From: Candidatus Multivoradales bacterium
Lineage (GTDB): Bacteria > Acidobacteriota > Thermoanaerobaculia > Multivoradales > JAHEKO01
Length of the DNA stretch: 64,000 nucleotides
Reading direction: 5' to 3'
Assembly: GCA_965223155.1 (NCBI GenBank)
Contig: CBDCVR010000014.1
Coordinates: 896,001 to 960,000, forward strand
The notes below the pieces were generated by a model. The model had not been told where the DNA came from. It ran no database searches and saw nothing but the letters and a program-made list of their open reading frames with translations. The position numbers were made by a program, and so were the translations under genes. The first letter of the stretch is position 1. Each line of letters begins with the position of its first letter. Below are positions 1 to 22,294 of the stretch, piece by piece.

Positions 1-335
1 CCTTCGTTCCTAGCTGCCTCTTTGATGGCTGCGGTGAGAAGCTCCTTGCCGGGCCAGTCCTGGCAGTCCTGGTAGCGATAGGCGAGACGAACGACGCCAG
101 CCTGATCCACGACGAATTCGCCGGGTAAGAGCCAGGGATTGGCCACCAACGCTGTTGCGGAGCCGTGGCGGGACTGCTGCAGTTCGCGCCCGGTCTCGAA
201 GTCGAATCGCATGTACTCCTCCGGCGCGTCGTCCATGATCTGTGAGACTTGGCCTTCGAGAAGGTCGAACGCGTTGTATGCGCTATATGTCGGATCGGAC
301 AGGATAGGAGTTGGCAGGTCCTGCGCCTCGTCCAG
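1..335 (-). pseudogene. 5'-truncated AhpC/TSA-like (redoxin) gene fragment, runs off the window edge
   Basis: Manual translation gives EAQDLPTPILSDPTYSAYNAFDLLEG...NPWLLPGEFVVDQAGVVRLAYRYQDCQDWPGKELLTAAI, a peroxiredoxin-like C-terminal half. There is an in-frame TGA at 348-350 and no CxxC-containing N-terminus upstream. Confidence 0.6.
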
Positions 336-569
336 CTGGACACCCGTTCAGCTATCGGGAAACCAGGGATGTGAGCGATCAAGAAGCTGGGCCTCCTACT
401 CCGCTCCCACTCCCTCTCAGGCGGACTGGTGCGAGCACTACCCAGTGCGCAGGAGCGGGATCCCGCCCCCCGCGGAGGCCCCTCGCCCCAGCCGGAGTCC
501 ACGAGGCTCGCGCCCAGTGAGATGCTGCGCTAAAATCTTGCTAGCAATTGATAGCACCAGGGAGATTCA

Positions 570-788
570 ATGGCTACCGTACAGATCAACGCCCGAGTGG
601 ATCCGGCACTGAAGAAGGCAATCGACGAGTACTGTCGCTCACGTGGCGTGGTCCTCAACCACTTCGTTCAGGAGGCGTTGATCGACCGCCTCGAGGAGCT
701 CGAGGACGTCGAGGACCTCAAGAGCATCCGCCATGAGCCGACGCGCCCACTAGCTGAGGTGCTCTCCGAGCTCGATCTCGATGGCTAG
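570..788 (+). CDS. Ribbon-helix-helix antitoxin (RelB/CopG-like)
   Basis: 72 aa; RHH-like N-terminus (VQINARVDPALKKAIDEYC) and acidic C-terminus; GGGAG RBS; overlaps the toxin gene. Confidence 0.8.
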   Translation: MATVQINARVDPALKKAIDEYCRSRGVVLNHFVQEALIDRLEELEDVEDLKSIRHEPTRPLAEVLSELDLDG

Positions 789-1041
789 CTACGCGATCGA
801 GATCTCGAGAAGCGCAGAGAAGCAGCTCAGGAAGCTAGCCCGAGGCGAACAGGAGCGGATCGTCAGCGCGATTCTGCCACTAGCCCAGAACCCCCGCCCG
901 CGCGGCGCCCGGAAGCTATCCGGCTACGACGACGTCTTCCGGATCCGTGTTGGGCACTATCGGGTTCTCTACAGTGTCTCGAGCGGAACCCTGGTCGTCA
1001 TCGTTTTGAAGATCGGTCACCGGCGCGACGTCTACCGATAG
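781..1041 (+). CDS. relE: RelE/ParE family type II toxin
   Basis: YAIEISRSAEKQLRKL...NPRPRGARKLSG..FRIRVGHYRVLY...IGHRRDVYR is the classic RelE/StbE pattern. Confidence 0.9.
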   Translation: MASYAIEISRSAEKQLRKLARGEQERIVSAILPLAQNPRPRGARKLSGYDDVFRIRVGHYRVLYSVSSGTLVVIVLKIGHRRDVYR

Positions 1042-1069
1042 CGGTCAACGGTAGAAGTACCTGGCAGAA

Positions 1070-1299
1070 CCCTGCTCGAGCTCGCCGCGCTCGTGTCCGG
1101 GGCCCTAGAGGCTGCGGGCATCGTCGCGACACTGTCGGGTGGAAGCGCCGTGTCCGCCTACACCGAGAACGGCTACGAGTCGGCGGATCTCGATTTCGTG
1201 ACGTCCGCTCTTCGGGAGACCCTCGAACCCGTCCTGCGGCCCCTGGGCTTTGTAGCTGCGCAGAATCCTCGCCTTTCGGTCGTCTTCCGGCCGAGGTGA
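1070..1299 (+). pseudogene. Truncated nucleotidyltransferase-fold gene (N-terminal fragment)
   Basis: TLLELAALVSGALEAAGIVATLSGGSAVSAYTENGYESADLDFV carries GGxA and DxD motifs; it stops after ~75 codons and has no clear start. Confidence 0.6.
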
Positions 1300-1386
1300 T
1301 AGCACCCGCCGCCCACGAGAAGCCCCCGCCAGTCGAGCCAGACTCTGTAGGCGGCCAGGCCGTGACAGCGGTGCCGGGCCAGCCGT

Positions 1387-2025
1387 TCAGAAGTTGTAGC
1401 GGAACCCGGCCGTGAGGCTGAACGACGAGTAGTCGACCGCTATCGGCTGTGCACCGACGGCCGGCGCTGTCTCGAAGGCGCCGTCCTCCGTGGCGTAGTA
1501 GCGCAAGCTGAAGTCGACGATCCAGTGCTCGTCGACGTCGATCCCCACGCCGGCGAGGAACTGCCATGCGAACAGGGTGTCCTCCGCAGAGACGATCTGG
1601 GGGTTCTCGTCGGTGCCGAAGTCTGTCAGCTCGATCTCCGCCCAACCGATCCCGGCGCCGACATAGGGGGAGACCCGCTTGTCCTTGTTGAAGTCGTACA
1701 CGATATTGCCCATGCCGGCTTCCGATTGGACGTCACCGCGTGATCCGGCCTGATCGACTCCGTTGAGACGGTGTACATCGACGTCGGTCTCGCGGGGAGT
1801 GTCGAGCTCGCCGTCGAGGCGAAAATGTTTGAATTGGTACCCGCCCCCGACGCTCCAGAGGTACCCGTCATCGAGCAATGTCTCGATGGCGCCGGCATCG
1901 ACGTCGAACTCGATATCGTCCGCGAAGTTCGCTCCGACGAAGGCTTGCACGTACCAGCCACCGGTGGCGGCAGGAGCTGCCACGAGGGTCAAAAGCGTGA
2001 AAACTACTGATCGGACGGTTCGCAT
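1387..2025 (-). CDS. Outer membrane beta-barrel protein (OmpA-like/porin family)
   Basis: Signal peptide, SPYVGAGIG motif, C-terminal GFRYNF with terminal Phe; GGAGG RBS. Confidence 0.88.
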   Translation of the reverse strand: MRTVRSVVFTLLTLVAAPAATGGWYVQAFVGANFADDIEFDVDAGAIETLLDDGYLWSVGGGYQFKHFRLDGELDTPRETDVDVHRLNGVDQAGSRGDVQSEAGMGNIVYDFNKDKRVSPYVGAGIGWAEIELTDFGTDENPQIVSAEDTLFAWQFLAGVGIDVDEHWIVDFSLRYYATEDGAFETAPAVGAQPIAVDYSSFSLTAGFRYNF

Positions 2026-2097
2026 GGGCTTCCTCCGTTTGTTGCGTGTGCCGTCCCTATGCGTTCCGAGTTGCTGCGCGGGACTAAGAATAGCAAG

Positions 2098-3381
2098 TCA
2101 ATGACCTGCGACCCAGCTCCAGAACGCCAGGTGATCCTGGTCTTTGACCAGTACGCCTCCGTCGACAGGAACGAGATGAGCCCATGTTGAGCTCTCCGCG
2201 ACCGCATAGCGCGCAAGCTCATCGTAGCTCTTGTCGTTGTCGCTCAGCACGATCAGTTCGGCCGAACCCGTGAGGGCGAGGATCGCCCCATCCACGACAA
2301 GGAGCGATGCGTAGTTTCCTGTTCGCCCGGGGCCGGTCCACAGGATCTCACCACTTGCCGCGTCCAGGCTGAAGATGCGGCCCTTGTCTTGGTGCGAAAG
2401 ACCGTAGATACGGCCATCGCTCTGAACCGGTGAGCTCATGTCCATCGCCAGCGAGTCGATCTGCCACGCCGGTTCGACCGACCAGCCGTCGGCGCCGCTC
2501 GAGGCCCGCAGCGCGATGATCCCGCGGCCCTTGCCGCTGATCACTACCAGGTCGCCGACGGACAGCGGGGTCACGATGTTGTGATGCACCATCGACTGCG
2601 GGAAAGTGTAGCGCCACCCGGGCCGACCCGTTTGTACATCGAAGCTGACGACCGCCTCTGCGCTGATCGTCACGACCTGCTGCGAGCCACCGAAAGCGGT
2701 GACGATCGCGGACGCATAGCTCGCCCCGTCGCTCGAGCCCGCCCAGACCTCTTCACCCGTCTCGACGTCGAACGCGATCACGCCACCGTCCTTGCCGCCG
2801 AAGTTGGAAATTACCCGCGAGCCATTCACCAGTGGAGATGCCGCCGCGCCGAAGTGTGGCAATGTCTTCTTGAAGCGATCTGCGAAGTCCTCCCGCCACA
2901 ACAGCTCGCCGCTGTCGGCGGCCCAGGCCGAGAGCACGCCGGTGATGCTGGTCGTAAACAGCCTCTCACCGTCGTAGGCGGGGCTGGCCTTGGGACCCGG
3001 CCCATGGCGACCCGAACCCATCCGGGGATTGAACGGCACGGCGTAGCGCTGGCTCCACAGAACCCCGCCACTGGCCAGCTCCAGGGCGCGTACCACCTCG
3101 TGCCCATCCTCACGGGACTGGACGAACACCCTGCCTCCGGCAACCACCGGAGCGGAGTAACCCGAGCCGACGCGGACCCTCCAGCGCCGCTGGAGCTCCT
3201 CGGGCCAGGCTTCGGGTACCGTGAACCCCACCGCGGTTCCGTCGCGTTCGGGACCGCGCCAGCCGGGCCAATCCGCGGCCCCGGCCAGACTCAGTTCTTC
3301 CCCATGCGCGAAAGAGGACCCCAAGGCAACCGCTACTGCGGCAATCGCCCAGATCGTTGATCTCCAGGTCGTGGGTCTCAT
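2098..3381 (-). CDS. PQQ-binding-like beta-propeller protein (BamB-like)
   Basis: Signal peptide MRPTTWRSTIWAIAAVA, then DWPGWRGPERDG, GSGYSAPVV and repeated A.D..SGE.LW blades. Start trimmed from the 580-aa ORF, whose 5' part reads through the repeats. Confidence 0.85.
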   Translation of the reverse strand: MRPTTWRSTIWAIAAVAVALGSSFAHGEELSLAGAADWPGWRGPERDGTAVGFTVPEAWPEELQRRWRVRVGSGYSAPVVAGGRVFVQSREDGHEVVRALELASGGVLWSQRYAVPFNPRMGSGRHGPGPKASPAYDGERLFTTSITGVLSAWAADSGELLWREDFADRFKKTLPHFGAAASPLVNGSRVISNFGGKDGGVIAFDVETGEEVWAGSSDGASYASAIVTAFGGSQQVVTISAEAVVSFDVQTGRPGWRYTFPQSMVHHNIVTPLSVGDLVVISGKGRGIIALRASSGADGWSVEPAWQIDSLAMDMSSPVQSDGRIYGLSHQDKGRIFSLDAASGEILWTGPGRTGNYASLLVVDGAILALTGSAELIVLSDNDKSYDELARYAVAESSTWAHLVPVDGGVLVKDQDHLAFWSWVAGH

Positions 3382-3521
3382 CCGTATCAGTGCTTCAGCG
3401 CCAGCGTTCCCACCTATGTCTGCTCCTTCGTTCGTCCGTGGCTCGCCGATGCTACCGCCATGCGTTGCCACCACCGCGAGCCCCAGCGCTCGAGGAGGGC
3501 ACCGAAGGCCTCGAGCCGAAG

Positions 3522-3718
3522 GCGGCATCGGCAGCAGGAATCGCTCCGAGTGACCGAGCCGAAGGCGAGGGAACGACGACCGCGTACCCAGGCGGTTCCG
3601 TCCATCTCCTCGCGACGCCAGCAAATGGCGGAAGCGCATGGGTCGCTCTAGCGCGCCCGAGCCACAGGCGAGGACGCGACGACCGATGAGCATGCGCGTC
3701 CGGTGTCTGCGGAGCAGA
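3522..3718 (-). repeat. tRNA-tail repeat: one 93-bp unit (3626-3718) plus a degenerate unit (~3522-3625)
   Basis: TGGCGGAAGCGCATGGG at 3626 and 3719 (93 bp apart); ggaatcgctccgagtgaccgagccgaaggcgagggaacgacgaccg at ~3537 matches the unit core. Confidence 0.85.
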
Positions 3719-3787
3719 TGGCGGAAGCGCATGGGAATCGAAGCCACTCCCGACGTGGCATCCCACGCCGGACTACGGTCTTGAAGA
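3719..3787 (-). mobile_element. Displaced 3' part of tRNA-Sec (att-site core, copy B)
   Basis: 68 nt collinear with 9115-9182, 3 mismatches; identity ends at the anticodon loop. Confidence 0.9.
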
Positions 3788-3930
3788 TTGCCGGGATCCA
3801 ACTGACGACAACTGTCGGCAGCTGACAACCACAGACGCACAAGGTAGTTGCGAGGCGTCGTGTTGATGAGGATTGCTGAGCCGAACGGCCGGAGGTTGGC
3901 GTCTATTGCACCACCAGCGCACCGTAAGAA
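3788..3930 (-). mobile_element. Conserved att-arm-like sequence (copy B)
   Basis: Collinear with 5111-5255: ATCCAAC at +10 and a (T/C)GCACC direct-repeat pair (11-bp period) at +121 from the tRNA fragment, the same offsets as copy A. Confidence 0.75.
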
Positions 3931-3944
3931 CCGCTGTTCGGACG

Positions 3945-4154
3945 CTAGAGTCGGCCTGACTTGCGCATCAGACGGGCCTCACTCGCTTCGCTCGCTGAGC
4001 CGAACTTGCGAACACCAGCTTCAAGCCGCCAGGGGCGCAGGCCATAGGCCAACTCGGTCAAATCGCAGGCGATTCTCAGGTTCTCAGAATCGAGTGGTCT
4101 CAGTCTTCTGGGACCAGGCATCTCAGCCACGGACGTGTACTTGGTAACAGGCAC
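3945..4154 (-). CDS. Small hypothetical protein, putative partner of the nucleotidyltransferase
   Basis: 69 aa, GTG start abutting the NTase stop; basic; MPVTKYTSVAEMP...GVRKFGSASEA. Confidence 0.7.
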   Translation of the reverse strand: MPVTKYTSVAEMPGPRRLRPLDSENLRIACDLTELAYGLRPWRLEAGVRKFGSASEASEARLMRKSGRL

Positions 4155-4637
4155 CTACGAGCTCTCCTCGTCCAGATCGAAGGCCTCGCGAATCCTCGCG
4201 GCGTCCGCGCGATCCTGGGGACGCACGGTATCCCGCTTCATGCGGTACAGCATTCGGGGGCTGGCGACACGAACCTTCAGATCCCCCAGGTCGATCTCCT
4301 CACTCCCCGACGCGAGATCCTCCCACGAGAAAGCCTCCCCGAGCCGGGTCAAGAAGTCCAGCGAATACCGACCGTGCGGTGGAACGTACTCGACTGCCGG
4401 ATACCTGCCCGCAAGCTCCTGAGGGTCGATTTCATCGATGCTGGAATCGTCGAAGAGAGACTTCAGAGCCCGCTTCAGAGCTTCGAGATTGTCGAGCGCT
4501 GGCGCCACGAAAAGATCCAGATCCTGAGTCGCTCGTGGAAGGCCCTGCGCCGCCATCGCCATCGAACCGATGACGACGAAGTCGACGCCCTCGTTCACCA
4601 AGGCTGTCAATACGGCCTTGACTTCTTCAAATGTCAC
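4155..4637 (-). CDS. Nucleotidyltransferase (DUF6036/AbiEii-like), putative toxin-antitoxin component
   Basis: VDFVVIGSMAMAAQGLPRATQDLDLFV (G[GS]xA..R.T.DxD) and C-terminal MKRDTVRPQDRAD (K...R..D..D). Confidence 0.85.
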   Translation of the reverse strand: MTFEEVKAVLTALVNEGVDFVVIGSMAMAAQGLPRATQDLDLFVAPALDNLEALKRALKSLFDDSSIDEIDPQELAGRYPAVEYVPPHGRYSLDFLTRLGEAFSWEDLASGSEEIDLGDLKVRVASPRMLYRMKRDTVRPQDRADAARIREAFDLDEESS

Positions 4638-4763
4638 AACATTCCCTCATAGCCATTGTATTTCAGGGCTTCTGACGATAGCTCTGGGCTCAGCCTGGCA
4701 CAGCCCGGCACGCAGTCGCTCCGGGCACGATTGTGGCCTTCGCGGTGGTCGGTCTGAAGCGAA

Positions 4764-5042
4764 CGGCGGAAGCGCATGGGTCACTCTAGAGCGCCCGAGC
4801 CACAGGCGAGGACGCGACGACCGATGAGCATGCGCATCCGCTGTCTGCGGAGCAAATGGCGGAAGCGCATGGGTCACTCTAGAGCGCCCGAGCCACAGGC
4901 GAGGACGCGACGACCGATGAGCATGCGCATCCGCTGTCTGCGGAGCAAGTGGCGGAAGCGCATGGGTCGCTCTAGAGCGCCCGAGCCGCAGGCGAGGACG
5001 CGACGACCGATGAGCATGCGCGTCCGCTGTCTGTGGAGCAGA
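4764..5042 (-). repeat. Three tandem 93-bp units, each ending in the last 17 nt of tRNA-Sec
   Basis: (T/C)GGCGGAAGCGCATGGG at 4764, 4857, 4950 and 5043; the intervening sequence is nearly identical. Confidence 0.95.
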
Positions 5043-5110
5043 TGGCGGAAGCGCATGGGAATCGAACCCACCCCCGACGTGGCATCCCACGCCAGACAAC
5101 GGTCTTGAAG
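5043..5110 (-). mobile_element. Displaced 3' part of tRNA-Sec (att-site core, copy A)
   Basis: 68 nt collinear with 9115-9182, 3 mismatches; ends at the anticodon loop. Confidence 0.9.
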
Positions 5111-5255
5111 GCTGGCGCGATCCAACTCGCCACAACTGTCGCCAACAGATAGCCACAGAAGATCGAGTTGGATGTGGGCCGCTGGCCTGTTGGCGACTGT
5201 TGAACACAGTGGTCAGGAGTTGCCGTCTACTGCACCAGGAGTGCACCATGAAGAA
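5111..5255 (-). mobile_element. Conserved att-arm-like sequence (copy A)
   Basis: TGCACC repeats at 5231 and 5242; ~10-bp-period CAAC repeats at 5120-5160; collinear with 3788-3930. Confidence 0.75.
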
Positions 5256-5284
5256 CAGCATGCTATCCGTGCTATCATGCTCCC

Positions 5285-5578
5285 GTGATCCGCTCTTTCG
5301 GAGATGTCGGCACCGAAGACATCTTCAATGGGCGTAACACCAAAGCCGCGAGGCGAACCTGCCCTCGGAATCTCTGGCAGGTAGCAGTGCGGAAGCTGGA
5401 GCAACTCGACTCCGCCGAGAATCTCGATGACCTCAGGGTGCCGCCGGGCAACCGACTCGAGGCCCTGACCGGCAACCGAAGTGGGCAATTCAGTGTTCGG
5501 ATCAACAGTCAGTACAGGGTCTGCTTCGCCTGGTCCGAAGCGGGTCCTGATGAAGTCGAAGTTGTCGATTATCACTAG
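5285..5578 (+). CDS. higB: HigB toxin (plasmid maintenance system killer, RelE superfamily)
   Basis: MIRSF...RKLEQLDSA..LDDLRVPPGNRLEAL.G.R.GQFSVRINSQYRVCF.W...VEVVDYH. Confidence 0.93.
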   Translation: MIRSFGDVGTEDIFNGRNTKAARRTCPRNLWQVAVRKLEQLDSAENLDDLRVPPGNRLEALTGNRSGQFSVRINSQYRVCFAWSEAGPDEVEVVDYH

Positions 5579-5590
5579 GGAATAGCCATC

Positions 5591-5905
5591 ATGGTCCGAG
5601 TACCCACACATCGCACACCGACTCATCCCGGGGAAATGCTCCTGGAGGAGTTCCTCAAGCCGATGAAGATGAGCCAGAGCGATCTCGCCAAGAAGATCCA
5701 TGTCCCCTACCAGCGGATCAACGAGCTGGTGAACGGCAAGCGCGGCATCACGCCGGCTACCGCCCTTCGGCTCGCCAAGTTCTTCGGGATGTCGGCCGGG
5801 TTCTGGATGAACCTCCAGCTCCGCTGGGACTTGTTTCACGCTCAGCGAGCTGAAGCCGAGGAACTGAAGAGGATTCGAAAGATCCGCCGGCCAGTCGGAG
5901 TGTGA
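5591..5905 (+). CDS. higA: HigA family HTH antitoxin
   Basis: PTHPGEMLLEEFLKP...RINELVNGKRGITPATALRLAKFFG.SAGFWMNLQ. Confidence 0.93.
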   Translation: MVRVPTHRTPTHPGEMLLEEFLKPMKMSQSDLAKKIHVPYQRINELVNGKRGITPATALRLAKFFGMSAGFWMNLQLRWDLFHAQRAEAEELKRIRKIRRPVGV

Positions 5906-5982
5906 GGTAGCAGCGGCCCCCGCACCAGGACTACGACTTCACCTTCCCAAGGGAGGTCGCAAGGGGCAGTGGGCAAGTCGCA

Positions 5983-6041
5983 ATCCAACAGGTGACAACG
6001 GCCGGCAACTCGTAACCACTGCTGTACAGAGAGGTTGCGAC
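5983..6041 (-). mobile_element. Truncated third att-arm-like copy (C), without a tRNA fragment
   Basis: atccaacaggtgacaacggccggcaactcgtaaccac...gttgcga has the same 57-bp ATCCAAC-to-GTTGCGA spacing as copy B. Confidence 0.6.
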
Positions 6042-6071
6042 CTGCGAACCGCCGGTTGAGTCGGACATCGA

Positions 6072-8908
6072 TTACGCCGCCTCCCGTGCCTCCAACTGCT
6101 CGAGCACCGCTTGCCTCTGGCGCTCGCGCTCGCGGTCCCAGTCGGCAATGATCTCCTTGAAGGATGGGTCGTCGAGAAGCACGCGAAAAGTAGGATCGAG
6201 GCTCGGGTTGACCGCGATCCAGCGGGCTTCGACCAGCTCGCGCCACACGTCGATCGCTTCCTCCTCACGACCCTCGAGGACAAGCACCCTCGCCCGTGCA
6301 AGTTGCATCTGCGGATGCACGACTCCGGCCGCGCGAGCCTCGTCACAGTACGCCCTGAGCTCGGTGAGCAAAGCCTCGGCTCCAGCCGAGTCGCCCGTCG
6401 CCCGTCGAGCCTGGATGAGCCAAACCGCGCCCTGATCCCAAAACGCAGCAAAGAGAGCCCGACGTGCCCTACCGTCTTGTCCGCCAGCGGCTCGAGGTAG
6501 CCGCGGGCGGCCTCGGCATCGCCCGCCCAGAGGTGAGCTCGCCCTGCCATTTCGGACGAGAAGGTGCTCGGATGCTCTCGAGCCCAGGTGCGAGCGAACG
6601 CGGCGGCCTCCGCGAATCGACCCGCTTCTTGCAGAGACACGACTCTTTCGAGGGGTCCCGTCCTGAGCTCTTGCGCTCGGTCGAAGAGTCCCAAGATGCT
6701 GTAGAGGTAGCTCAGGAAGCGTCCGATGGAGGCGTCCTCGGGTGCCAGCTCCAGCGCCCGCAGTAAGCCCTTGTGCTGTTCATCCCCGTGCCCCCTTATC
6801 CGGTGGAGCGCCGTCAGGGCCTTGTAGCTCGCCGCGTCTCCCCGGACTCGGACCAGCCTCTCCGCCGTTTCGCGAGCCTCGTCGTAGCGGCCCCTCCAGC
6901 TCGCCACAACGACCCAGTTCTGGACCGCCACATAGGACAGCGGATCCAGGGCCACCGCCCGCTTCAAAGCGGCGAACCCTTCGTCGTAACGGTTGAGATC
7001 GACCAACGACTGCGCTCGCCAAAGTACCGCTCGCGCCATGTTGGGGCTCTTCGCGAGAGCCCTATCGAACGTCGCAACGGCTTCTTCGTGAAGTTCCCGA
7101 TTCTTGAACAAGAGTCCCTCGGCGACCTGGACCTCCGGCGAGTCCGGAGCCAGCAACCGGGCGCGCTCGATCAGAGGCTCGACCCGCGCGATCGCCTCGG
7201 TCAGCGGGATGTCACCGTAGTGGCCGGGGGTGTCCTGCAGAAGAAGGGTCGTCTCCACCAGCGCAGCGTAGGCCGGCGCGTACTCGGGGTCGAGCGCGAT
7301 CGCTGTCTCGAAAGACCCAAGGGCCTGCTCCAAAGGCTTCTGACCACGCTTCTCCATCAAGTAACGGCCCTCCAGATAGGCGCTATAGGCCTCCGTACTC
7401 GCGCTCCGCACCGCCTCCGGAGCCTCGGCCGCGAGCCCCAGCTTCTCCTCGAGCGCCGCGACGATCGAACGTGCGATCTCGTCCTGGATCGCGAACACGT
7501 CCTCAAGCTCACGGTCGTAGGTGTCCGACCACAGGTGAAAGCCCGAGTCGGCGTCGATCAACTGGGCGGTGATCCGGAGCGTCGTGCCGGCCTTGCGCAC
7601 GCTTCCCTCGAGGACGTTCTCCACCTCCAGGGCCTCGGCGATCTTCTTGACATCCTCGTTCTTGCCCTTGAACGCGAACGACGACGTGCGAGCGGCGACC
7701 TTCAGACCCGGGAGCCTGGCCAGGAGATTCAACAGCTCCTCCGAGATCCCGTCCGAGAAATACTCCTGATCGCGCTGCGGGCTCATATCGGCGAAGGGGA
7801 GCACCGCGATCGAGGCGTGGCCGGCCTCGACGGCGGCCTGACCGGCGGTCTCTCTGGGCGAGTCTCTTCCCGTGCCGAACCAGAAACCGGCTGCGAGCGC
7901 TACGGCCAGGGCTGCCGCTCCCAGCCCGATCCAGAGACTCCGACTCGAAGGCGTCGCGCTCGACTCGGTCGTTGAAGCCTGTGCGCGTTCCGGAGCCGCT
8001 GGCCCGGCCGCCGCTGGAGCCGTGACCGACACAGATGCAGCGACGGCATCCCGCTGCAGCCTGCTGAGGTCGGCTTTGAGTTCGGAGGCGTGCTGGTACC
8101 GAAGCGTCTTGTCCTTCTCGAGCGCCTTGTCGAGGATGCGTTCGAGCTCGTCGGGCAGATCCGGGTTGATGCGGACCGGGGCGGTCGGGGCCTCGCTCAG
8201 AATCCGATTGAAGATCGCCCCGGCGGTCTTGCCAGCGAAGGGCTGCTTGCCCGTCGTCATTTCGTAGAGCACAACTCCCAGCGAGAAGAGATCGGTTCGC
8301 GCGTCGAGCTCCTCTCCGCGCACCTGCTCGGGCGACATGTAGGCAACTGTGCCGATCGCAGTGCCGGGAGTCGTCAACTGCTCGCGAGCCGGCTCGGTCT
8401 CGGCATCTTCGGAGTGGGACTCCCGTCGTGCCCGGTCTTCGCTCACCTTGGCGAGCCCGAAGTCGAGCACTTTGGCGTCACCGCGGCGGGTCAGGAACAG
8501 ATTCGCCGGCTTGAGGTCGCGATGGACTATGCCTGCACCGTGCGCTGCGTCCAAGGCATCCGCCACCTGAGCACCGAGTCGGACTACCTGCTCGACGGAC
8601 ATTGGCTCGCCGCTGATCCGGTACTTCAGGGTCTGGCCGTCCATCAGCTCCATGACGATGAAGGCGCGGCCCTCCTCCTCCCCCAACTCGTGGACCGTGC
8701 AGATGTGCGGGTGGTTGAGCGCCGATGCCGCCCGGGCCTCGCGCTTAAAACGCGCCAGCGCTTCGGGATCCTCGGCCAGTTCGTCAGGTAGGAACTTGAG
8801 TGCCACCCGCCGGCGCAGCGTCAAGTCCTCCGCCTGAAACACCACTCCCATCCCGCCACCACCGAGCTTCTCCAAGATCTTGTAATGGGAGACAGTGGTT
8901 CCAATCAT
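6072..8908 (-). pseudogene. Ser/Thr protein kinase + TolB-like (SIAVLPF) + TPR protein, frameshifted near 6455
   Basis: [51 protein letters not shown]. The family-typical C-terminus ([19 protein letters not shown]) is in another frame (ORF 6072-6371). Confidence 0.8.
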
Positions 8909-9018
8909 GGGACCCGTCCTGTCGGGAGACTCCTTTCTCGTCAGGTTGCTCGAATTCTAGCGGAGCGGTGTCTTCGCAAACCAACGGAGGAACCTCACTT
9001 ACCGCCTTGGCGGCGAAA

Positions 9019-9114
9019 TGGCGGAAGCGCATGGGAATCGCTCTAGAGCAGCGTCGCCGTCAGGCGGCGGTGCGACGACCGATGACCATGCGACTCGGCC
9101 ATTCGCATAGCGAA
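9019..9114 (-). repeat. Diverged 96-bp tRNA-tail unit directly downstream of selC
   Basis: 22-nt duplication TGGCGGAAGCGCATGGGAATCG at 9019 and 9115; core gctctagagc...cgacgaccgatga.catgcg is shared with the 93-bp units. Confidence 0.88.
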
Positions 9115-9214
9115 TGGCGGAAGCGCATGGGAATCGAACCCACCCCCGACGTGGCATCCCACGCCGGACTACGGTTTTGAAGACCGCGGGAGGCACCAGC
9201 CCCCGAGCGCTTCC
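9115..9214 (-). tRNA. selC: tRNA-Sec (anticodon UCA)
   Basis: 8-bp acceptor GGAAGCGC/GCGCTTCC, 6-bp D stem with 4-nt loop, anticodon loop CTTCAAA, long variable arm CCGGCGTGG/CCACGTCGG, 5-bp T stem with TTCGATT, G discriminator and encoded CCA. Confidence 0.97.
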
Positions 9215-9221
9215 GCGGGGG

Positions 9222-9227
9222 ATTGTA
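9222..9227 (-). promoter_or_regulatory. -10 element of the selC promoter
   Basis: TACAAT 7 nt upstream of the tRNA 5' end. Confidence 0.55.
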
Positions 9228-9338
9228 CGGCAGGAGGCGCCGGGCCGACTGGCGGCTCGTCGCACCGGTTTCTTGGCTGGAACGAGCGGCGGTCTGTGTC
9301 GCGGCCACCGCTGGCACCCCTCGACGGCTAGTGCTTCG

Positions 9339-10742
9339 CTACTCGCCGCCGAGACCCGGAGTCTCGGCTTCGGCCGGAGCGTCGGCATCGGCCGCCGCGG
9401 TCAGGTCGGGCCGCTGCTTGGGCACGTTGACCTTGAGCCAGGCGATGAGGTCGCGCCAGATGCGAAGCTGCTCGGCCTCGCTCACCATGATGCCCGCGCT
9501 GGGCAGCTCGATAGTGACCACGGGCAGGCCCAGATGGACGCCGGCGTAGCGGCCGAGCGAGCCCGGATAGGTGCCCATCTGTTTCAGGTAGAGGGAGCCG
9601 AGTTTTTCTGGGGGCTCCGGCGGGCCGTCGTAGTCAACGACCTTGCTCGGAGCATGGACGGAGACGATCGCCGACGGGCGGAAGGTCTGGATCTGATCGA
9701 AAAGCCACTGAGACTCGGGCTCGCTCAAGGGGTCGGTACCGGGATACCGGCGCGGATTCCGTGACGTACGCCGGATCCAGTAGTCCGACGCCTCGACGTG
9801 CCAGTTGGGGCTCGGAAAGTTGCGGTTGAGATCGACGCCATGCTCGTTCATGCGCTGCGCCTTGGAGCGCAGCAGGCCGTCGGGATTCAAGAGCGGCACC
9901 ACCCGCCAGTGAAACATCCCCGAGTGGTTGCGCTGGAGGATCGACAGCCATTTGAAGACGATGGAAACCGAGGAGTACTCGTCTCCGTGAATGCCCCCGA
10001 AAAGCAGCACCCGGCCGAGCGACTCGCGAGCGGCAAGGGGCGGGAACTCGGCCATCAGAATGGGGGCGCCGTTGACCGAACGGGCGCCCGTCGTGGCAAG
10101 CCGGCTGTCGACGCAATCACTCCGATCAACGCTCCCCAGCTTGCGACCGATCCGTCCGCACAGGTCGAGACGTGCGGTGTTGACGGCGTCTGGACTCTGA
10201 GCCGATGGATCGACATCCTCGAGAGCCGAGTGGGCACTCTCGGTATCGCCGACGACCGTGTCGGCAGCAGCCGGCGTCTGCAGCGCGGAGTGCGAGGCCA
10301 TCCCGGCCTCAGCCGCCGGTGTAGACGAAACGGCCGGACTCCCGGCGAGATCCTCGCCGGGCGGGCGATCCGAGTCGTGGGCTGGGTCTCCGGACGCGTC
10401 GGATCGAACGATCTGTTGGCTCTCGACGGCTTCGGACTCCGGACCCGGAGGCTCCGGATCTCCCGCCGCAGCAACCGAGGCTTCCTTGCCGCCGGCGCCT
10501 CGGACGTCTGTAGGTGCCAGGTGCCGCGCCAGGTAGGTGACCCCCAAGACCAGCGCGCCGAGGATCAGAAGGGTCGTCAGCGCGCCCCAGGGCGAGTCGT
10601 CTTCGGCCTCCAGCTCGGCCAACTCGATCGATTCGGTCGAATCGGCCTCGGGCGAAGCGGGCGAACCAACCAGATCGGACGCCTGGGGCGACTCCGGAAG
10701 CTCGGCCTCGATCGGCTCCGGGTCTCGTTCGTCGTCGGTCAT
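9339..10742 (-). CDS. mpaA: M14 zinc carboxypeptidase, murein peptide amidase A-like, with N-terminal TM and acidic linker
   Basis: GGIHGDE, LLNPDG, RMNEHGVDLNRNF, SEPE, SVH, YPGSLGRYAG..LPVVTIEL. Confidence 0.85.
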   Translation of the reverse strand: MTDDERDPEPIEAELPESPQASDLVGSPASPEADSTESIELAELEAEDDSPWGALTTLLILGALVLGVTYLARHLAPTDVRGAGGKEASVAAAGDPEPPGPESEAVESQQIVRSDASGDPAHDSDRPPGEDLAGSPAVSSTPAAEAGMASHSALQTPAAADTVVGDTESAHSALEDVDPSAQSPDAVNTARLDLCGRIGRKLGSVDRSDCVDSRLATTGARSVNGAPILMAEFPPLAARESLGRVLLFGGIHGDEYSSVSIVFKWLSILQRNHSGMFHWRVVPLLNPDGLLRSKAQRMNEHGVDLNRNFPSPNWHVEASDYWIRRTSRNPRRYPGTDPLSEPESQWLFDQIQTFRPSAIVSVHAPSKVVDYDGPPEPPEKLGSLYLKQMGTYPGSLGRYAGVHLGLPVVTIELPSAGIMVSEAEQLRIWRDLIAWLKVNVPKQRPDLTAAADADAPAEAETPGLGGE

Positions 10743-10886
10743 GGTTCTTCGCGCTAGCCGTCGCGGCTCGCTGGAGCCGATCGGGTCATCCTGGCTCAGA
10801 CACTCGGCTCTGGCTGTGGAACGTGTTACGGCCCCGGCCGGAAGTGTATCGCTATACTGCCGGCGCTCACCGGTCGGACGAACCGC

Positions 10887-11804
10887 ATGGCGCTATTCAA
10901 CCGAAGATCGTTCCTCAAGGCCTTGCCCGTGGCGGGCTGCGCTTGCGCGCTCGAGGGAACTCGCCGGGTGCGCGTCATCCCGCCGTCCGACCGACCGGCG
11001 CCCGACCGACCGGCGCCCGACCCCGGCCTGGCCGATTCCGGCATCGCTCACATCGATCCTCCCTCGGATGAGGGCTCCGGACACCGAAGCGGCGGCCATC
11101 TGCACAAGATCCAGGATTTCGACCGCACCTACGACGACGACTACCTACTGGCGGCAAGCCGGGTCGAGCTCTTGGAAGCCAGCGCAGCCCGGGTCGAGCG
11201 CGCCCTCCGCTACATCGGGCACGGGCACTTCAATCTCGTTTCCTTCGATGAGCTCCTCAAGTACGCGGCACGCTACAGCGCCATCGGAGCCTTCCCGCGC
11301 CAAGAGATCGAGTTTCTGGATGAGATCTTCCATACCGATGCCGCGAACTACGGTTTCTTTGGGGACAAGGTACTCACCCGCCAAACGGCAGTCATCGCCG
11401 AACGGGACGTCAAGAAGATCGCAGGATCGGGCCACTATTTGCTCCGTGGCGAGCCGCTGGCAAGGTTCGACCAGATCCGGCGCGACCTGGGTGAGCGGGT
11501 CGTCTTGACCTCGGGCGTCCGAGGCATCGCCAAGCAGTACCAGCTCTTCCTTTCGAAGGCGGTCGAGACCGGCGGTAACTTGTCCCAGGCTTCGCGTTCG
11601 CTGGCGCCTCCAGGCTACTCGTACCACGCGATCGGAGACTTCGACATCGGCCGCGTGGACTACGGGCTCAAGAACTTCTCGGCCGAGTTCGCCCTGACGC
11701 CCGAGTACCGCCAGTTGATTCGCCTCGGCTACGTTGAGATCCGCTACACCGAGACCAATCCGTTCGGTGTCCGCCACGAGCCCTGGCACATCAAGATCGC
11801 CTAG
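10887..11804 (+). CDS. M15/VanY-like D,D-carboxypeptidase with Tat signal
   Basis: NRRSFLK Tat motif; TSGVR, APPGYSYHAIGDFD (SxHxxGxxxD-like), HEPWH. Confidence 0.85.
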   Translation: MALFNRRSFLKALPVAGCACALEGTRRVRVIPPSDRPAPDRPAPDPGLADSGIAHIDPPSDEGSGHRSGGHLHKIQDFDRTYDDDYLLAASRVELLEASAARVERALRYIGHGHFNLVSFDELLKYAARYSAIGAFPRQEIEFLDEIFHTDAANYGFFGDKVLTRQTAVIAERDVKKIAGSGHYLLRGEPLARFDQIRRDLGERVVLTSGVRGIAKQYQLFLSKAVETGGNLSQASRSLAPPGYSYHAIGDFDIGRVDYGLKNFSAEFALTPEYRQLIRLGYVEIRYTETNPFGVRHEPWHIKIA

Positions 11805-11893
11805 GCCCGTTTCCACAACCGGCGCGGCAGCCGCCCGCGCCGGACCCCCGGCGATCGGAGGCGGATCGAAGCCGGCTCCGGTACCATGCGCCG

Positions 11894-12643
11894 ATGAACG
11901 GCCGCTTCTTTCGAGCCCGCGTCACGGTCCTTCTTCTGACTCCGGTCCTGCTGGCAAGCGGCTGCTCGAGCACGGCTCTGGACGAGATCCTTGCGGGCGC
12001 CCTAGAGCCCTCGCAGGCTCTCGACCGAGAGACCGTGATCGCCGGACTGCGCGAAGCCCTCGAGGTCAGCGCCGAGCGAACCGTCGAGCGGACCGCCCGT
12101 ATTGACGGCTTCCTGGCCAATGAGCTCATCCGGATCGCGATTCCGGACGAGCTCGACAAGCTGGCTTCGGCACTTCGTCGGCTGGGGCTCGGAGGCAAAG
12201 TGGATGAGCTCGAGATCCAGATGAACCGCGCCGCCGAGGAAGCGGCCGGCGAGGCCCGCGAGATTTTCTGGGACGAGATTCGCAGCCTGACCTTCCCCGA
12301 TGCCGTGGCAATCCTCGAGGGCGGCGGCACCGCCGCCACCGACTTTCTCGAAGAGCGCACCGGCGGCGAGATCCGTAGCCGGTTCGAACCGGTCGTCGTC
12401 GAGACTATGAATGAAGTTGGCCTGGCGCGCCTCTACGCCGATCTGGCCGAGACCTACAACCGGCTGCCGCTAGTGACCACGCCGGCGATCAATCTCGAGG
12501 ACTACGTGACCGAGGAAGCGCTCGAGGGTCTGTTTACGGTCCTCCGAGAGGAAGAGGCACGCATCCGGGAGGATCCCCTGGCGCGGACGACCGATCTGCT
12601 GCGGCGGGTGTTCGGGCGCGAACGCGCCACGCAATCGCGCTAG
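11894..12643 (+). CDS. DUF4197 family lipoprotein
   Basis: LASGC lipobox; AGLREALEV, MNRAAEEAA, YVTEEALEGLF...EEARIREDP..RTTDLLRRVFG. Confidence 0.88.
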   Translation: MNGRFFRARVTVLLLTPVLLASGCSSTALDEILAGALEPSQALDRETVIAGLREALEVSAERTVERTARIDGFLANELIRIAIPDELDKLASALRRLGLGGKVDELEIQMNRAAEEAAGEAREIFWDEIRSLTFPDAVAILEGGGTAATDFLEERTGGEIRSRFEPVVVETMNEVGLARLYADLAETYNRLPLVTTPAINLEDYVTEEALEGLFTVLREEEARIREDPLARTTDLLRRVFGRERATQSR

Positions 12644-14046
12644 CTGAGGTCCGTCTCGCGGCCGAAGCCCGTTCCGATCGCGATCAGCACCATCACGAGG
12701 AGCGCCCAGGAGTGGGCGTTCGCCACCCCCACTTCGAAGGGCGACACGCGGGGCATGCCCTCGGCGCCGGCGCTCAAGCTCGACGCCAGCAAGGTCGGAA
12801 TGCAGTACGGCACCAGAAAGGGATACGTGCAGACTGTGACGTCCAGAAGGTTCGCGCGCCGGTTGGGCGAAAGACCGAAACGCTCCCCGGCGCGCCGGGC
12901 AAACGGACCGACCGCCAGGAGCGCCACGACCGAGTGTGTCGTCAGCAACACGGCAGCCGAAATGGTGGCGAAGGTCCAGAGCTCGGCTCCACGCGCCGTC
13001 CGCGTGCGGCGCTCGGCCCCTTCGATCAACCGGCTCAGGAGCCCCGAGGCCTCGAAGCCCGCGACCAGGGCCATGAGTAGAAGCGTGAAGACCGAGATAC
13101 CGACGCCGCGGCCGATACCCTCGATCACCAATCCCTTGGCCGAATAGGCCTCCCGATCGATCCAGAAGATCTGGCTGGGCTCGATCAGACCCAGGACCGG
13201 CGCCAGAACGGCAGCCGCCACGACGCCGGCAAAGAGCCCTTCGAGAAGGTGCCTGCGCGACAGCAACAAGGCCAGAATCAGTACCGGCGAAGCCAGCATC
13301 ACCAGCGCCACGGGCTCGAACGCCGGTCCGGCAGCCGATCCCGCCGCCGCCTGCCCAACCGGACCACCGCCGGTCCCCCCCAAGAGTCCGTACCCGAGGA
13401 TCGCCACCGCCGCCGCCGGCAGCGCGTACTTCAAACGGCTCCGCACCACCGAACCGATCTCGGCTCCCTGGGTCGATGCCGAGGCGATCGTGGTGTCCGA
13501 GACCGGGGAGATGTTGTCGCCGAAGGTCGCTCCGCCCAGGATCGCGCCCATGAGAACCGCCGGAACGGCGCCCAGCTCCGCTCCCGGCGGATAGAGAAGC
13601 GGCGCGCACAGAATCAGGGTCCCGAGGCTTGTGCCGGTGGCCGTCGAGACCAGGCAGCAAACGAAGAAAGCCGCTACCGCATAGGCGCCACCGGTCAAGC
13701 CGGCCGCGCCGGCAAGACCCGCGAGGGCCTCGACCAAGCCGCTCGCGCGCAGCAGTGTCGCCAGCACCCCGGCCAGGAACCAGGCCAGGAGCATGAGCGC
13801 GACGATCGGCCGGCTCATGCCGGCAAGTACCGTTTCCGAATAAGCGGTCCGGTCCCGAGCCAGAAACAGCCCTAGCGCCAGGGCGGCCAGAAGGATCGGC
13901 CAGAAGCCGCGCTCGTCGGGGGCGCCCGAGAGCCCCAGCCACACGACGCCGGCCAGAAACAGGGCAATCGGCGCTACGGCACCGGTGACGCCTCCGAAAA
14001 ACGTCAGGCGCTTCTGGCCGCCATCGTTGGTCCTGCGATCCTTCAC
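12640..14046 (-). CDS. Na+/H+ antiporter NhaC family protein
   Basis: Multi-TM; STATGTSLGT and GAILGGATFGDNISPVSDTTIASA motifs. Start uncertain. Confidence 0.85.
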   Translation of the reverse strand: MKDRRTNDGGQKRLTFFGGVTGAVAPIALFLAGVVWLGLSGAPDERGFWPILLAALALGLFLARDRTAYSETVLAGMSRPIVALMLLAWFLAGVLATLLRASGLVEALAGLAGAAGLTGGAYAVAAFFVCCLVSTATGTSLGTLILCAPLLYPPGAELGAVPAVLMGAILGGATFGDNISPVSDTTIASASTQGAEIGSVVRSRLKYALPAAAVAILGYGLLGGTGGGPVGQAAAGSAAGPAFEPVALVMLASPVLILALLLSRRHLLEGLFAGVVAAAVLAPVLGLIEPSQIFWIDREAYSAKGLVIEGIGRGVGISVFTLLLMALVAGFEASGLLSRLIEGAERRTRTARGAELWTFATISAAVLLTTHSVVALLAVGPFARRAGERFGLSPNRRANLLDVTVCTYPFLVPYCIPTLLASSLSAGAEGMPRVSPFEVGVANAHSWALLVMVLIAIGTGFGRETDLS

Positions 14047-14245
14047 GACTCGAAAATGGAGGGTACCAGCCGCGCATGCTCGTCCACTGCCCGGCCTCAA
14101 GGCCCCTTGCCCGACGCTCGGAACGAATACACGGGTGACGATCCTGGCACGCCGTTTTCGGCTTGGGAGGGCGTGTTATGCTGTTTGAAACACATCAGAT
14201 GTCGGGTACGGACGCGCGGCGGCGCTGTCCGAACACGGAGGGGCC

Positions 14246-14575
14246 ATGAAACGAATTCTCGGTTTGATTGCGGTTGCGATGTTCCTCGGCGCCTGCTGTC
14301 CCAACGGCTTCAGCAACACGGTCACCAGCGAAGCGGTCTACTACCCGGACGCCGACGCTTGTGAGCAGGCGGTCCGGGACGGCCGTGAGGGCCTCATCCA
14401 GACCGCCGAGAACGGCTGCGAGAACTCCTGCAAGCCTTGCGACGGTACCGTCCAGGATGTCGGCGGCGAGCCCGATTTTTCCGTCCTCTGCGAAGAGGTG
14501 CCGGACTCGCCACAAGGACCCGAGCTGTCCTGGCGAGGCGTGGGCAGCTACACCTACGGCTGCGACTGTGCCTAG
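14246..14575 (+). CDS. Small Cys-rich lipoprotein, hypothetical
   Basis: GGAGGG RBS; MKRILGLIAVAMFLGAC lipobox; many Cys; ends in YGCDCA. Confidence 0.75.
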   Translation: MKRILGLIAVAMFLGACCPNGFSNTVTSEAVYYPDADACEQAVRDGREGLIQTAENGCENSCKPCDGTVQDVGGEPDFSVLCEEVPDSPQGPELSWRGVGSYTYGCDCA

Positions 14576-14585
14576 GAGGGACCCG

Positions 14586-15875
14586 ATGCAGGCACTCAAA
14601 GGACCCGACGTGAAATGGCTCCGGATCCTGACGCGCCTTGCCGCGCTGGGGATCGTCGTCTACATCGGCTCGGTTGGCTGTTCGTTGTTCGTCGTGGCCT
14701 CGGGAGGCGATTCAGACTCCACACCGGCTCCGGCACAAGATGAATACGGCTGCGACTGCCTGTGCCAGGTCTGCGAGGGAACCTGGATCGGCGAGGCCTG
14801 TGTCGACGAGAACGACAGCCCGACCGAGATCGGGACGCGTACGGACACCCTTCGCTTTTGCGCGCCGCCAGACACACCCCAGACCGAGCTCATCACCGAG
14901 TGTGACGCCCTGTGCGTGTCCACGCCCGAGCAACCCGGACACGAGTTCGAGATCTGCGAGCGGGCCAGCGCAGTGACCCAGTTCGACACCGCGACCTGTC
15001 CGCCCGAGACCGAGACCGTGTATTCGGACGGCAGAACCAACGTCGGCGATGCCCTCACCATCACTCTCGACGAGGCCTCGCACGCCAACGTGACCCTCTC
15101 CGGACCGCTGGCCAATTTCGCGACCCCGAACATTCCGATCTCGGGCTCGTTCCGGCTGTTCATCGACGGTTGCGAGGAGCAGGAGGGAGCCTGCTCGGTG
15201 TCGGTGGCCGACGCCGATGTCTCCGCCGGAGACGCCGCTATCGGACCGTTCCAATTGAGCGGTTTGACGCTCATCCTGGCCGATCCCGCGCCGGGCACGA
15301 TGGACGAAGACGGCAACCTGAGCTTCCCGTCGGTGCGCTTGCACGGCGGCGTCGACTATCTCGGCCTGCGCTCGGTCGGCAACCTGGAGATCCTGCCAGA
15401 GCACGTCGTAAGCGCGCGCCTGGATCGGGAGGACCGGGAGTTCCGGGCCGATGGGCAGATGACGGGCAGCTTCAGCGTGCCGCCATTCGGCCAACTCACC
15501 GAGACCGTGCTGGTCAGCCTCAGAGGCTCGGTCGCAAACTTCCCGCCGGTGGCCAGAATCAGTCAGACGGACACTGCGGTGCTGTCGTCGGCCGAGAGCT
15601 CGGACCGGGACGGACTGGGCACGATCGCTCATCGTCGCTGGTTCGATTCGGCCGACGGCGCCTTCCTCGGATCGGGCATGGAGCTCGAGCTCGAGCCGGG
15701 GGAGCACGCGGTCAGCCTGATCGTGACCGACGCCAGCGGCGCCCAGGATCGAGCCGACTTCACGCTCGTGGTGCCTCAGGCCCTGCCCTGGCTGCCGCTT
15801 GTCGTGACCGCTCTGGTTCTACTGCTTCTGGTGTGGTGGCTGCGCCGGCCCAAGACCAAGGCCGCTCCCGCCTAG
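14586..15875 (+). CDS. Cys-rich secreted/surface protein with PKD-like domain and C-terminal TM plus basic tail
   Basis: AGGAGG RBS; YGCDCLC N-terminal region; NFPPVARI..LSSAESSDRDG..W..LEPGEHAVSLIVTDASGAQD (PKD-like); LPWLPLVVTALVLLLLVWWLRRPK. Confidence 0.75.
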   Translation: MQALKGPDVKWLRILTRLAALGIVVYIGSVGCSLFVVASGGDSDSTPAPAQDEYGCDCLCQVCEGTWIGEACVDENDSPTEIGTRTDTLRFCAPPDTPQTELITECDALCVSTPEQPGHEFEICERASAVTQFDTATCPPETETVYSDGRTNVGDALTITLDEASHANVTLSGPLANFATPNIPISGSFRLFIDGCEEQEGACSVSVADADVSAGDAAIGPFQLSGLTLILADPAPGTMDEDGNLSFPSVRLHGGVDYLGLRSVGNLEILPEHVVSARLDREDREFRADGQMTGSFSVPPFGQLTETVLVSLRGSVANFPPVARISQTDTAVLSSAESSDRDGLGTIAHRRWFDSADGAFLGSGMELELEPGEHAVSLIVTDASGAQDRADFTLVVPQALPWLPLVVTALVLLLLVWWLRRPKTKAAPA

Positions 15876-15958
15876 GGCTGTTTCAGGGTAGGCCGCTGCC
15901 GGGGGCCCTTGGTGCCCTCGGCTGGAACCATGCCCACCACTGGCCGCGGCAACGGGCT

Positions 15959-19192: not shown

Positions 19193-19237
19193 ACCGAATC
19201 AATTCGGTCAGAACCGCCCCTCCGCTAGACTGCCGGC

Positions 19238-22221: not shown

Positions 22222-22294
22222 TCCGCAACTCTATCGAGCCCCGGCCCGCGCGTCCGAACCGGTCTCGGAACGCTCCTGCTGGTAGCGAATCCGG

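Follow-up and report, generated by a model that had tools for sequence, protein, structure and literature searches.

Tandem integrase-less segments behind selC in an Acidobacteriota family: putative attR arms, exchanged cargo, and a possible helper-moved origin

The 64,000-nucleotide stretch of Candidatus Multivoradales bacterium DNA analyzed herein (the window; C14:896001-960000 of the genome studied, G000) contains an intact tRNA-Sec gene, selC, behind which small groups of cargo genes are stacked in the orientation of the tRNA (minus strand). The array covers 10.6 kb (C14:894627-905214) and is composed of three full modules, each with an arm and a selC fragment, plus one decayed module. Coordinates are those of the window unless marked C14, and other genomes, contigs, and loci are given as G, C, and L numbers. 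Related genomes have similar rows with different cargo, which makes the selC locus a gene-swapping hotspot common to them rather than the relic of a single prophage. The favored explanation, with an estimated probability of about 0.55, is the tandem accretion at selC of integrase-less segments bounded by attachment (att) sites. Such segments would resemble cis-mobilizable elements (CIMEs) and would have been moved with helper elements.

Array layout and the integrase family of the arms

The first bases of fragments A, B, and D are CTTCAA, from the anticodon loop, and each fragment differs from the 3' part of selC at 2-3 of 68 positions. The original prediction of two 68-nt tRNA fragments that begin at the anticodon loop was borne out, with both running to CCA. 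Its arms A and B, described as diverged and collinear, are indeed collinear though only 65% identical. When arm, fragment, and tail were joined as one query, the other copies were matched with E values of 1e-83 to 1e-134, far beyond chance. Each arm starts with two GGTGCAC-like sites placed one helical turn apart.

This paired motif, GGTGCRC-N4-GGTRCAR, has 5 sites in the 4.0 Mb genome: one in each of arms A, B, and D, and one at either end of an island at tRNA-Lys(TTT). The 18-kb island (C14:366335-384738, locus L060) has the intact tRNA on one side and a 45-nt tRNA fragment on the other. The motif is located between the tRNA and the integrase gene (P' side) and again about 110 nt before the 45-nt fragment (P side). 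The island encodes a 347-aa tyrosine integrase, a Replic_Relax relaxase-like protein, two type IV coupling protein (T4CP)-like proteins, a primase zinc-ribbon protein, RadC, an N6/N4 methylase, and a Schlafen/AlbA_2 protein. Such a gene set would be expected of an integrative mobilizable element (IME).

The integrase of the Lys island was compared with integrases encoded directly after selC, and the identities were 71% in G017, 64% in G004 (the window's genus), and 56% in G040. In the selC islands of these three genomes the paired motif is present twice, once in attL and once about 140 nt upstream of the selC fragment that was displaced; it reads GGTGCAC in G040 and GGCACAC in G017 and G004. 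Since the paired motif is common to the arms and the integrase-bearing selC islands, the arms are interpreted as the P-arm halves of attR junctions of one tyrosine-integrase family. The earlier reading of the arms as att sites is upheld by the same motif. Members of the family with 64-71% identity occupy Lys, Sec, Leu, and Ser tRNAs, which indicates that target choice changes quickly within the family.

One unplaced mobile-element contig, C7 (25,326 bp, G+C 61.6%, loci L141 and L142), encodes a family integrase, an EcoRI-like methylase, GmrSD, RepA_C, an FRG-domain protein, two IS110 transposases, and one IS256-type transposase. C7 was tried as a hidden selC helper and rejected, as it has no selC homology and no paired motif. 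Its integrase is cut by the contig end, and the closest sequences are integrases adjacent to tRNA-Leu(TAA) (62%) and tRNA-Lys(CTT) (55%). Separately, positions 9983-10121 of L074 (G004:C112) hold a GGTGCAC-type arm followed by a different core (CTTTTAATCC...) and no selC fragment. About 3 kb from that arm are a gene for tRNA-Gln and the 52-aa remnant of an integrase, and this arm type may serve another target.

The items of the array listed in the original prediction were all present by ARAGORN, Rfam, Pfam, and Tandem Repeats Finder (TRF), and are collected in Table 1. Two of them were revised. Arm C does exist as an arm-like sequence; it comprises the core-proximal half only, with neither paired motif nor tRNA fragment, and is a decayed attR. 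The genes for a PQQ-like propeller and an outer membrane protein (OMP) had been taken as the end of the array. A third arm, fragment, and tails were found left of the window, so that the PQQ/OMP genes form a further segment and not flank. Cargo 4b includes, beyond the RelB/ParE-like pair, three further open reading frames (ORFs) that run past the left window end to arm D, and a convergent kinase gene follows the arm D module.

The Ser/Thr kinase of cargo 1 shares 55-56% amino acid identity with the Ser/Thr kinases of the G052 and G053 arrays. Its 989-aa ORF passes through half arm C and terminates within the 3' end of higA (5939-6460), and its homology to related kinases ends near residue 690-720. 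A 99-aa ORF in another frame (6072-6371, stop TAA at 6072-6074) overlaps it, and a frameshift or a read-through tail is possible. The kinase was also considered as a defence gene and rejected, as the PADLOC matches to PD-T4-6 and MAD6 span the generic kinase domain only. Pfam scans of all called genes detected no integration or transfer genes in the array. A scan for promoters and terminators returned 0 promoter-like sites, and its terminator-like sites were about as frequent as chance predicts.

Table 1 Features of the selC array of G000, in tRNA orientation.
Feature	Position	Strand	Evidence and details
selC, intact tRNA-Sec, anticodon TCA, array anchor	9115-9214	-	ARAGORN; Rfam RF01852, 73 bits
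Tail unit 0, 96 nt, with a repeat of the terminal 22 nt of selC (T) at its end	9019-9114	-	
Cargo 1, Ser/Thr protein kinase with TPR repeats	5939-8908	-	Pfam Pkinase 2.1e-47 and TPR families
Half arm C, putative core-proximal half of a P arm	5979-6040	-	GTTGCC..GTTGTC..GTTGGAT; blastn against arm D, q107-150, 79.5%; alignment
Cargo 2, toxin-antitoxin pair higB, higA	5285-5578, 5591-5905	+	Pfam HigB-like 1.3e-17, HTH_3; NCBIfam HigA 2e-32
Arm A, putative P arm of an attR	5111-5262	-	Paired GGTGCAC/GGTGCAG at 5230-5247, two CAACA boxes, core-adjacent phased GTTG repeats
Fragment A, 68-nt selC 3' part, anticodon loop to CCA	5043-5110	-	Weak Rfam match
Three 93-nt tail units (X + T)	4764-5042	-	TRF period 93, x3.2 at 4758-5059, 95% matches; hairpin z -2.3
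Cargo 3, AbiEii-like nucleotidyltransferase and 69-aa partner ORF	4155-4637, 3945-4154	-	Pfam AbiEii 1.3e-07
Arm B, putative P arm	3787-3942	-	Paired motif GGTGCGC/GGTGCAA
Fragment B, 68-nt selC 3' part	3719-3786	-	
Tail unit and degenerate tail	3626-3718, 3535-3625	-	Degenerate tail assigned to the PQQ/OMP block
Cargo 4a, degenerate tail, BamB/PQQ-like propeller (2098-3411), OMP beta-barrel (1387-2025)	Block 1281-3642	-	Pfam
Cargo 4b, 68-aa ORF (1093-1299), ParE-like toxin (781-1041), RelB-like antitoxin (570-788)	1-1299		
Arm D	C14:894883-895036		Left of window
Fragment D	C14:894814-894881		Left of window
Two tails	C14:894627-894813		Left of window

Recurrence and exchange of the segments across the family

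A search of this genome and its relatives had been suggested with the original prediction. With arm D as the query, arms were detected in 11 of the 45 genomes of the family and in 6 of its 20 genera; G005 enters only these family tallies, and no claim depends on it. From the matches, 30 arms were extracted, each aligned over at least 100 nt. All 30 are collinear, with 19 of 142 columns invariant, 70 of 142 conserved at 90% or more, and a median pairwise identity of 72%. The longest array is that of G052, in which selC is followed by 7 modules over 20.5 kb. Three modules plus a scar are found in G022, four modules on two contigs in G003, and one module in G015. G053 carries two modules behind selC on one contig and more arms on a second contig, and G001 and G002 have several modules on short contigs. 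Segment sizes range from about 0.2 to 9.4 kb, and the majority are 1-4 kb.

Ser/Thr kinases with TPR or PD40 repeats are cargo in G000, G015, G022, G042, G046, and G053, and twice each in G003 and G052. Other array cargo includes Lcl_C and FG-GAP proteins, DUF4440 with an amidohydrolase, DsbB, SnoaL, DUF7010, higBA, and AbiEii-like pairs, and one G052 segment holds an IS3 transposase. The G002 cargo includes a 9.4-kb molybdoenzyme operon on a contig whose ends are an arm with its fragment and an arm (L047, G002:C450, the whole 9,889-bp contig). Its genes encode an EB_dh/cytochrome c protein, a 1160-aa molybdopterin oxidoreductase, a Fer4_11 subunit, a Nitrate_red_del chaperone, and a CMD protein, a predicted respiratory-type operon borne as selC cargo.

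The surroundings of selC on its 5' side also vary. In G015, a TIR-nSTAND1-WD40 protein of 1350 aa with a defence-like architecture is encoded directly upstream of selC (L042, G015:C1, 1149-5201). In G002, G003, and G004, selC adjoins, or is within a few kb of, homologues of the genes at about 23.1-28.3 kb of the window, which in G003 include a response regulator/histidine kinase pair. In the window, about 14 kb (9339-23100; M14 peptidase, VanY, and others) separate selC from those genes, and the homologues of this stretch are elsewhere in G002, G003, and G004. The extra 14 kb relative to the same-genus genomes indicates that the 5' side has been rearranged as well.

No tyrosine integrase was found inside any array. 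The search used PF00589 on G022, G003, and G015, and a family integrase query at E <= 1e-10 on G052, G053, G046, G042, and G004. For G001 and G002, Pfam was run on all called genes of the array contigs together with a whole-genome search at E <= 1e-30, which was not exhaustive. The linkage of arms in relatives to large integrase-bearing islands had been named beforehand as evidence for plain deletion scars; none of the 30 arms of the selC-array subtype has such a link. In G017, the segment after an integrase island is 2.3 kb long, lacks an integrase, and has an arm and a fragment of its own. The motif was also scanned over a wider set of genome contigs and gave 35 matches. About half of them are in Thermoanaerobaculia/Acidobacteriota metagenome-assembled genome records; the rest are scattered across phyla and, by a rough estimate, are compatible with chance. 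Among viral contigs, the pattern of core-proximal arm plus core had 0 matches, and the 16-base paired motif had 15, which is chance level by a rough estimate.

Nucleotide identities of the shared blocks were measured against a background of 19.7 kb of ordinary chromosome from the window, which is 66-81% identical to same-genus genomes (43 matches) and 65-76% identical to G052, G022, and G015 (31 matches). The degenerate tail with the PQQ and OMP genes (1281-3642) is 90.0% identical over 2365 nt to a block in the array of G052, another genus. Nearly the same block (1336-3642) is 88.7% identical over 2309 nt to L113, a metagenome contig that opens with the tRNA 3' end. When metagenomes were searched with the PQQ protein, only two close relatives were returned, on contigs of 2.3 and 1.3 kb, of which L113 alone was informative. 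The higBA region matches G052 at 85.4% over 643 nt (5257-5898), and higBA with arm A matches G001 at 92.4% over 843 nt (5077-5918). The nucleotidyltransferase pair (3971-4678) matches G002, where it also follows T repeats, at 79.6% over 710 nt, a value not clearly above background. Apart from the last, these identities show that integrase-less blocks have been exchanged horizontally, including between genera. In G000, G052, and L113 the PQQ block starts with the tRNA 3' end and the same degenerate tail. This shared integrase-less boundary indicates that the loss of the integrase predates the spread of the block.

The comparison of cargo order, which had likewise been suggested, revealed that the order is not fixed. 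The Ser/Thr kinase precedes higBA in G000; in G052 the order is higBA, tail, and a homologous Ser/Thr kinase (77% in the kinase domain). The cargo differs in every genome compared. One fragment of G003 has a variable arm like that of G052, and its identity to G052 modules is 88-91%.

A tree of the 30 arms requires 20 changes of genome label, compared with a mean of 21.3 after shuffling. Arms of G001 and G022 form a group with arm A at a Shimodaira-Hasegawa-like approximate likelihood ratio test (SH-aLRT) support of 98, although the G022 arm comes after a kinase instead of higBA. Resolution is poor in this short tree, where 17 of 27 inner branches are open, and it supports the absence of genome clustering and nothing finer. 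Arms A, B, and D are mutually 65-71% identical, and for each of them a closer relative, at 76-86%, exists elsewhere. Direct repeats in one orientation with nearly identical tails could also arise by in-situ duplication of one arm, fragment, and tail module with no independent insertions; this is hardly credible, given that each arm of G000 is closer to an arm of another genome than to its neighbors and that the tree requires at least two origins for them.

The tails are 92-99% identical across the G000 segments, compared with the 65-71% of the arms. In their hairpin fold, T is paired with a T-like stretch, inverted, from the beginning of the unit (z -2.3 and -3.65). The latter value belongs to the long hairpin of tail unit 0, which is about 80% identical to the other tails. 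The tail-unit core CATCGGTCGTCGC is also present downstream of the last G017 fragment, and tail-like stretches are found in G020, G022, G052, and G053. The tails were rejected as tRNA-like genes, as neither Rfam nor ARAGORN gave a match, though they fold as hairpins.

Proposed mechanism and competing explanations

Each well-preserved segment ends in an attR made of a P arm of about 140 nt, with the paired GGTGCAC sites, two CAACA boxes, and phased GTTG repeats, and a 68-nt selC 3' part that a later insertion displaced. If accretion with helper elements is correct, complete integrative or mobilizable elements of the arm-type integrase family would insert at selC. The attL of such a helper, with its P' sites, could pair with the attR of a distal cassette, and the helper would be excised together with the neighboring cassettes. 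After transfer and integration the helper would leave alone, and the cassette would remain without an integrase or a P' arm. New insertions would adjoin selC and push the older segments outward. In G052 the most decayed fragments are the distal ones, which fits insertion at the selC end. The scheme would explain the cassettes with only a P arm, the missing integrase, the identical block boundaries across genera, and the island with its integrase-less unit in G017. The loop sequence CAAAACC is present in 6 of 6 functional selC genes examined, and CAAGACC is found only in fragments (5); this distribution fits a crossover 3' of that position and is no proof of it.

Several observations weigh against this reading. 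In G000 no selC-specific integrase was found: the genome has 7 PF00589 matches, the nearest 72.7 kb from selC, and a tblastn search of the array with 8 integrases found no remnant. The predicted absence of an integrase from the array is thereby confirmed, and the search for a selC-type integrase was negative in G000 and positive only in relatives, directly beside selC in G004, G017, and G040. The other array genomes had no selC-adjacent integrase, with the sole exception of G004, whose arms are of the GGCACAC variant. From the lack of a selC-specific integrase in G000, the array is probably at rest.

The ends of the cassettes are also uneven. The attR side is well conserved, and the proximal side consists of the core and the tRNA 3' part, with tails in place of the P' paired motif. 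No P' paired motif is present downstream of the tRNA copies of G000, where tail units are found instead, and across about 30 cassettes the only P'-type site is in a scar of G022; over the arrays as a whole, such sites are confined to scars of G022 and G004. The G022 scar runs from selC through a P' motif to a half arm within about 320 nt, with no integrase, and G004 has a second P' remnant after a fragment, again with no integrase. These scars indicate that plain decay also happens. The cassette interpretation therefore stands in part: the segments lack an integrase and have been exchanged across genera, while the cassettes carry no P' motif and deletion scars do exist.

Further, the variable arm in the fragments is of the host type in 3/3 fragments of G000, 7/7 of G052, 3/3 of G022, 2/2 of G053, 1/1 of G015, and 3/4 of G003. 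Import at the anticodon loop across genera predicts donor-type fragments, so that mostly conspecific donors, gene conversion, or junctions within the 31 nt at the tRNA 3' end would be needed. These 31 nt are identical in all but a few decayed copies. Lastly, in G052 the PQQ/OMP block stops 18 nt short of the arm, and at the same point in G000 it meets a 2.2-kb piece that contains RelB/ParE. The boundary of the shared blocks is thus the arm's outer edge rather than the core, which indicates that cargo and arm recombined and are not strictly linked.

Circular forms were looked for in Logan contigs from four runs with the locus, over C14:893001-907000. The contigs stop at repeats (at about L059 1700, 6682, 7794-7820, 8219, and 12138), and none bridges a module. 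Joints with sides of 20-44 nt were present, none of them joining two att cores, and rare circles are invisible to contigs. At L059:13983 (window about 10983), the Logan contigs of 3 of the 4 runs have a 15-nt insertion (CGTCCGACCGACCGG) relative to the assembly, and in one run a second haplotype shows about 30 differences over 9218-11000.

The scars bear most directly on passive decay, in which separate full-size integrase-bearing islands at selC shrank in place and the integrase-less units never moved. Such a route is described in the parts consulted of a preprint on tycheposons (bioRxiv 10.1101/2020.12.28.424599) and of a review of IMEs (PMC5704250), and G000 has a half arm of its own, arm C. 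None of the cassettes of G000 itself retains a trace of a P'-bearing scar. Decay alone is nevertheless judged unlikely: the PQQ/OMP block has the same integrase-less proximal boundary in G000, G052, and L113 at 89-90% identity, and no integrase pseudogene was found in the array of G000 or in those of G022, G003, G015, G052, and G053. Nor does the cargo, which consists of kinases, FG-GAP and Lcl_C proteins, a molybdoenzyme operon, and toxin-antitoxin pairs, include phage or conjugation genes.

The block edges and fragments raise a different explanation, which is considered about as improbable as decay. The arrays would have been seeded by integrases, and the cassettes would now be swapped by RecA-type homologous recombination after DNA uptake. 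The tRNA 3' ends, tails, and arms would serve as portable homology, and shared blocks do stop at the outer arm edge. Host-type fragments beside foreign-like cargo place the proximal junction inside the 31 nt of the tRNA 3' end. The clade of arm A is joined to higBA in G000 and G001 and to a Ser/Thr kinase in G022, and the contrast in identity between tails and arms suggests concerted evolution. Against such shuffling, the homology is short and the arms are at the median only about 72% identical. In addition, the conservation of half the arm columns (70/142) across six genera argues for selection on protein-binding sites.

Beyond accretion with helpers, a broader view is offered only tentatively. 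The selC gene may be the head of a lineage-wide, integron-like exchange platform in Thermoanaerobaculia that operates on a lambda-type integrase system. Its cassettes of one to a few genes, such as sensor-type TPR/PD40 Ser/Thr kinases and toxin-antitoxin pairs, would carry the attR-type arm as an address tag and circulate on transient helpers among genera. The hairpin tails might then act as a cassette-side recombination or expression signal that replaces the P' arm.

The locus presents an uncultured Acidobacteriota lineage that turns over accessory genes with no mobile-element machinery resident at the site, and repeat-domain Ser/Thr kinases are flagged as often-exchanged cargo. If mobilization by helpers is true, CIME accretion would grow from a curiosity of a few Firmicutes islands into a systematic cassette platform, and a defined arm motif and integrase family would become available for experiments.

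Comparison with known systems

In enterobacteria, selC is a target of tyrosine integrases, and the genomic islands there duplicate the tRNA 3' part, are large, and carry their integrase. The arrays in this study consist instead of small integrase-less units. The literature searched contained no description of such selC cassette arrays in Acidobacteriota.

The integron resembles the selC array as an ordered series of small, mostly same-direction, promoter-proximal cassettes with their own recombination sites, a single anchor, and toxin-antitoxin cassettes. However, no IntI is found beside the selC anchor, and the Lys-island integrase is far below integron-integrase cut-offs. The selC sites are double-strand attR-type arms, and the anchor is a tRNA gene. 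An attC-like fold was not found either; as single-stranded DNA, arms A and B give different structures, and arm B has z values of -0.66 and +0.21 on the two strands. The integron-like label of the original prediction therefore holds for function and no further. Integrase-less att-bounded units moved by a helper are already covered by the CIME model in the consulted text of the IME review (PMC5704250).

The tycheposon islands of Prochlorococcus, according to the sections consulted of the preprint (bioRxiv 10.1101/2020.12.28.424599), grow by successive integrations at one tRNA that displace older elements and leave partial tRNAs and degenerated remnants, with adaptive cargo. The partial tRNA copies and the proposed outward displacement of older insertions are shared with the selC arrays. 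The differences are the host, which is of another phylum, and the remains: tycheposon islands contain fragmented integrases, whereas the arms here are well conserved and no integrase fragments were found.

The closest likeness is to CIMEs and the accretion known from ICESt1 and ICESt3. As described in the portion consulted of the IME review (PMC5704250), integrase-less units keep their att sites, stand in tandem at a tRNA 3' end, and persist beside an integrative element. The attL of a related integrase-bearing helper and their attR allow joint excision, after which the helper may leave alone, and the model includes gene capture. The lack of integration and transfer genes that characterizes CIMEs was found in the selC array segments by Pfam and tblastn. 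In contrast to CIMEs, the selC arrays stack up to 7 units with no resident helper. Their units mostly hold 1-3 genes of cargo unrelated to mobile elements, often one Ser/Thr kinase. They also keep the P-arm side only, without P' arm sites, and span at least 6 genera of one Acidobacteriota family. The locus thus fits CIME accretion, and what sets it apart is the lack of a resident helper, the loss of P', the tiny cargo, the many units, and the conservation of the arms across genera.

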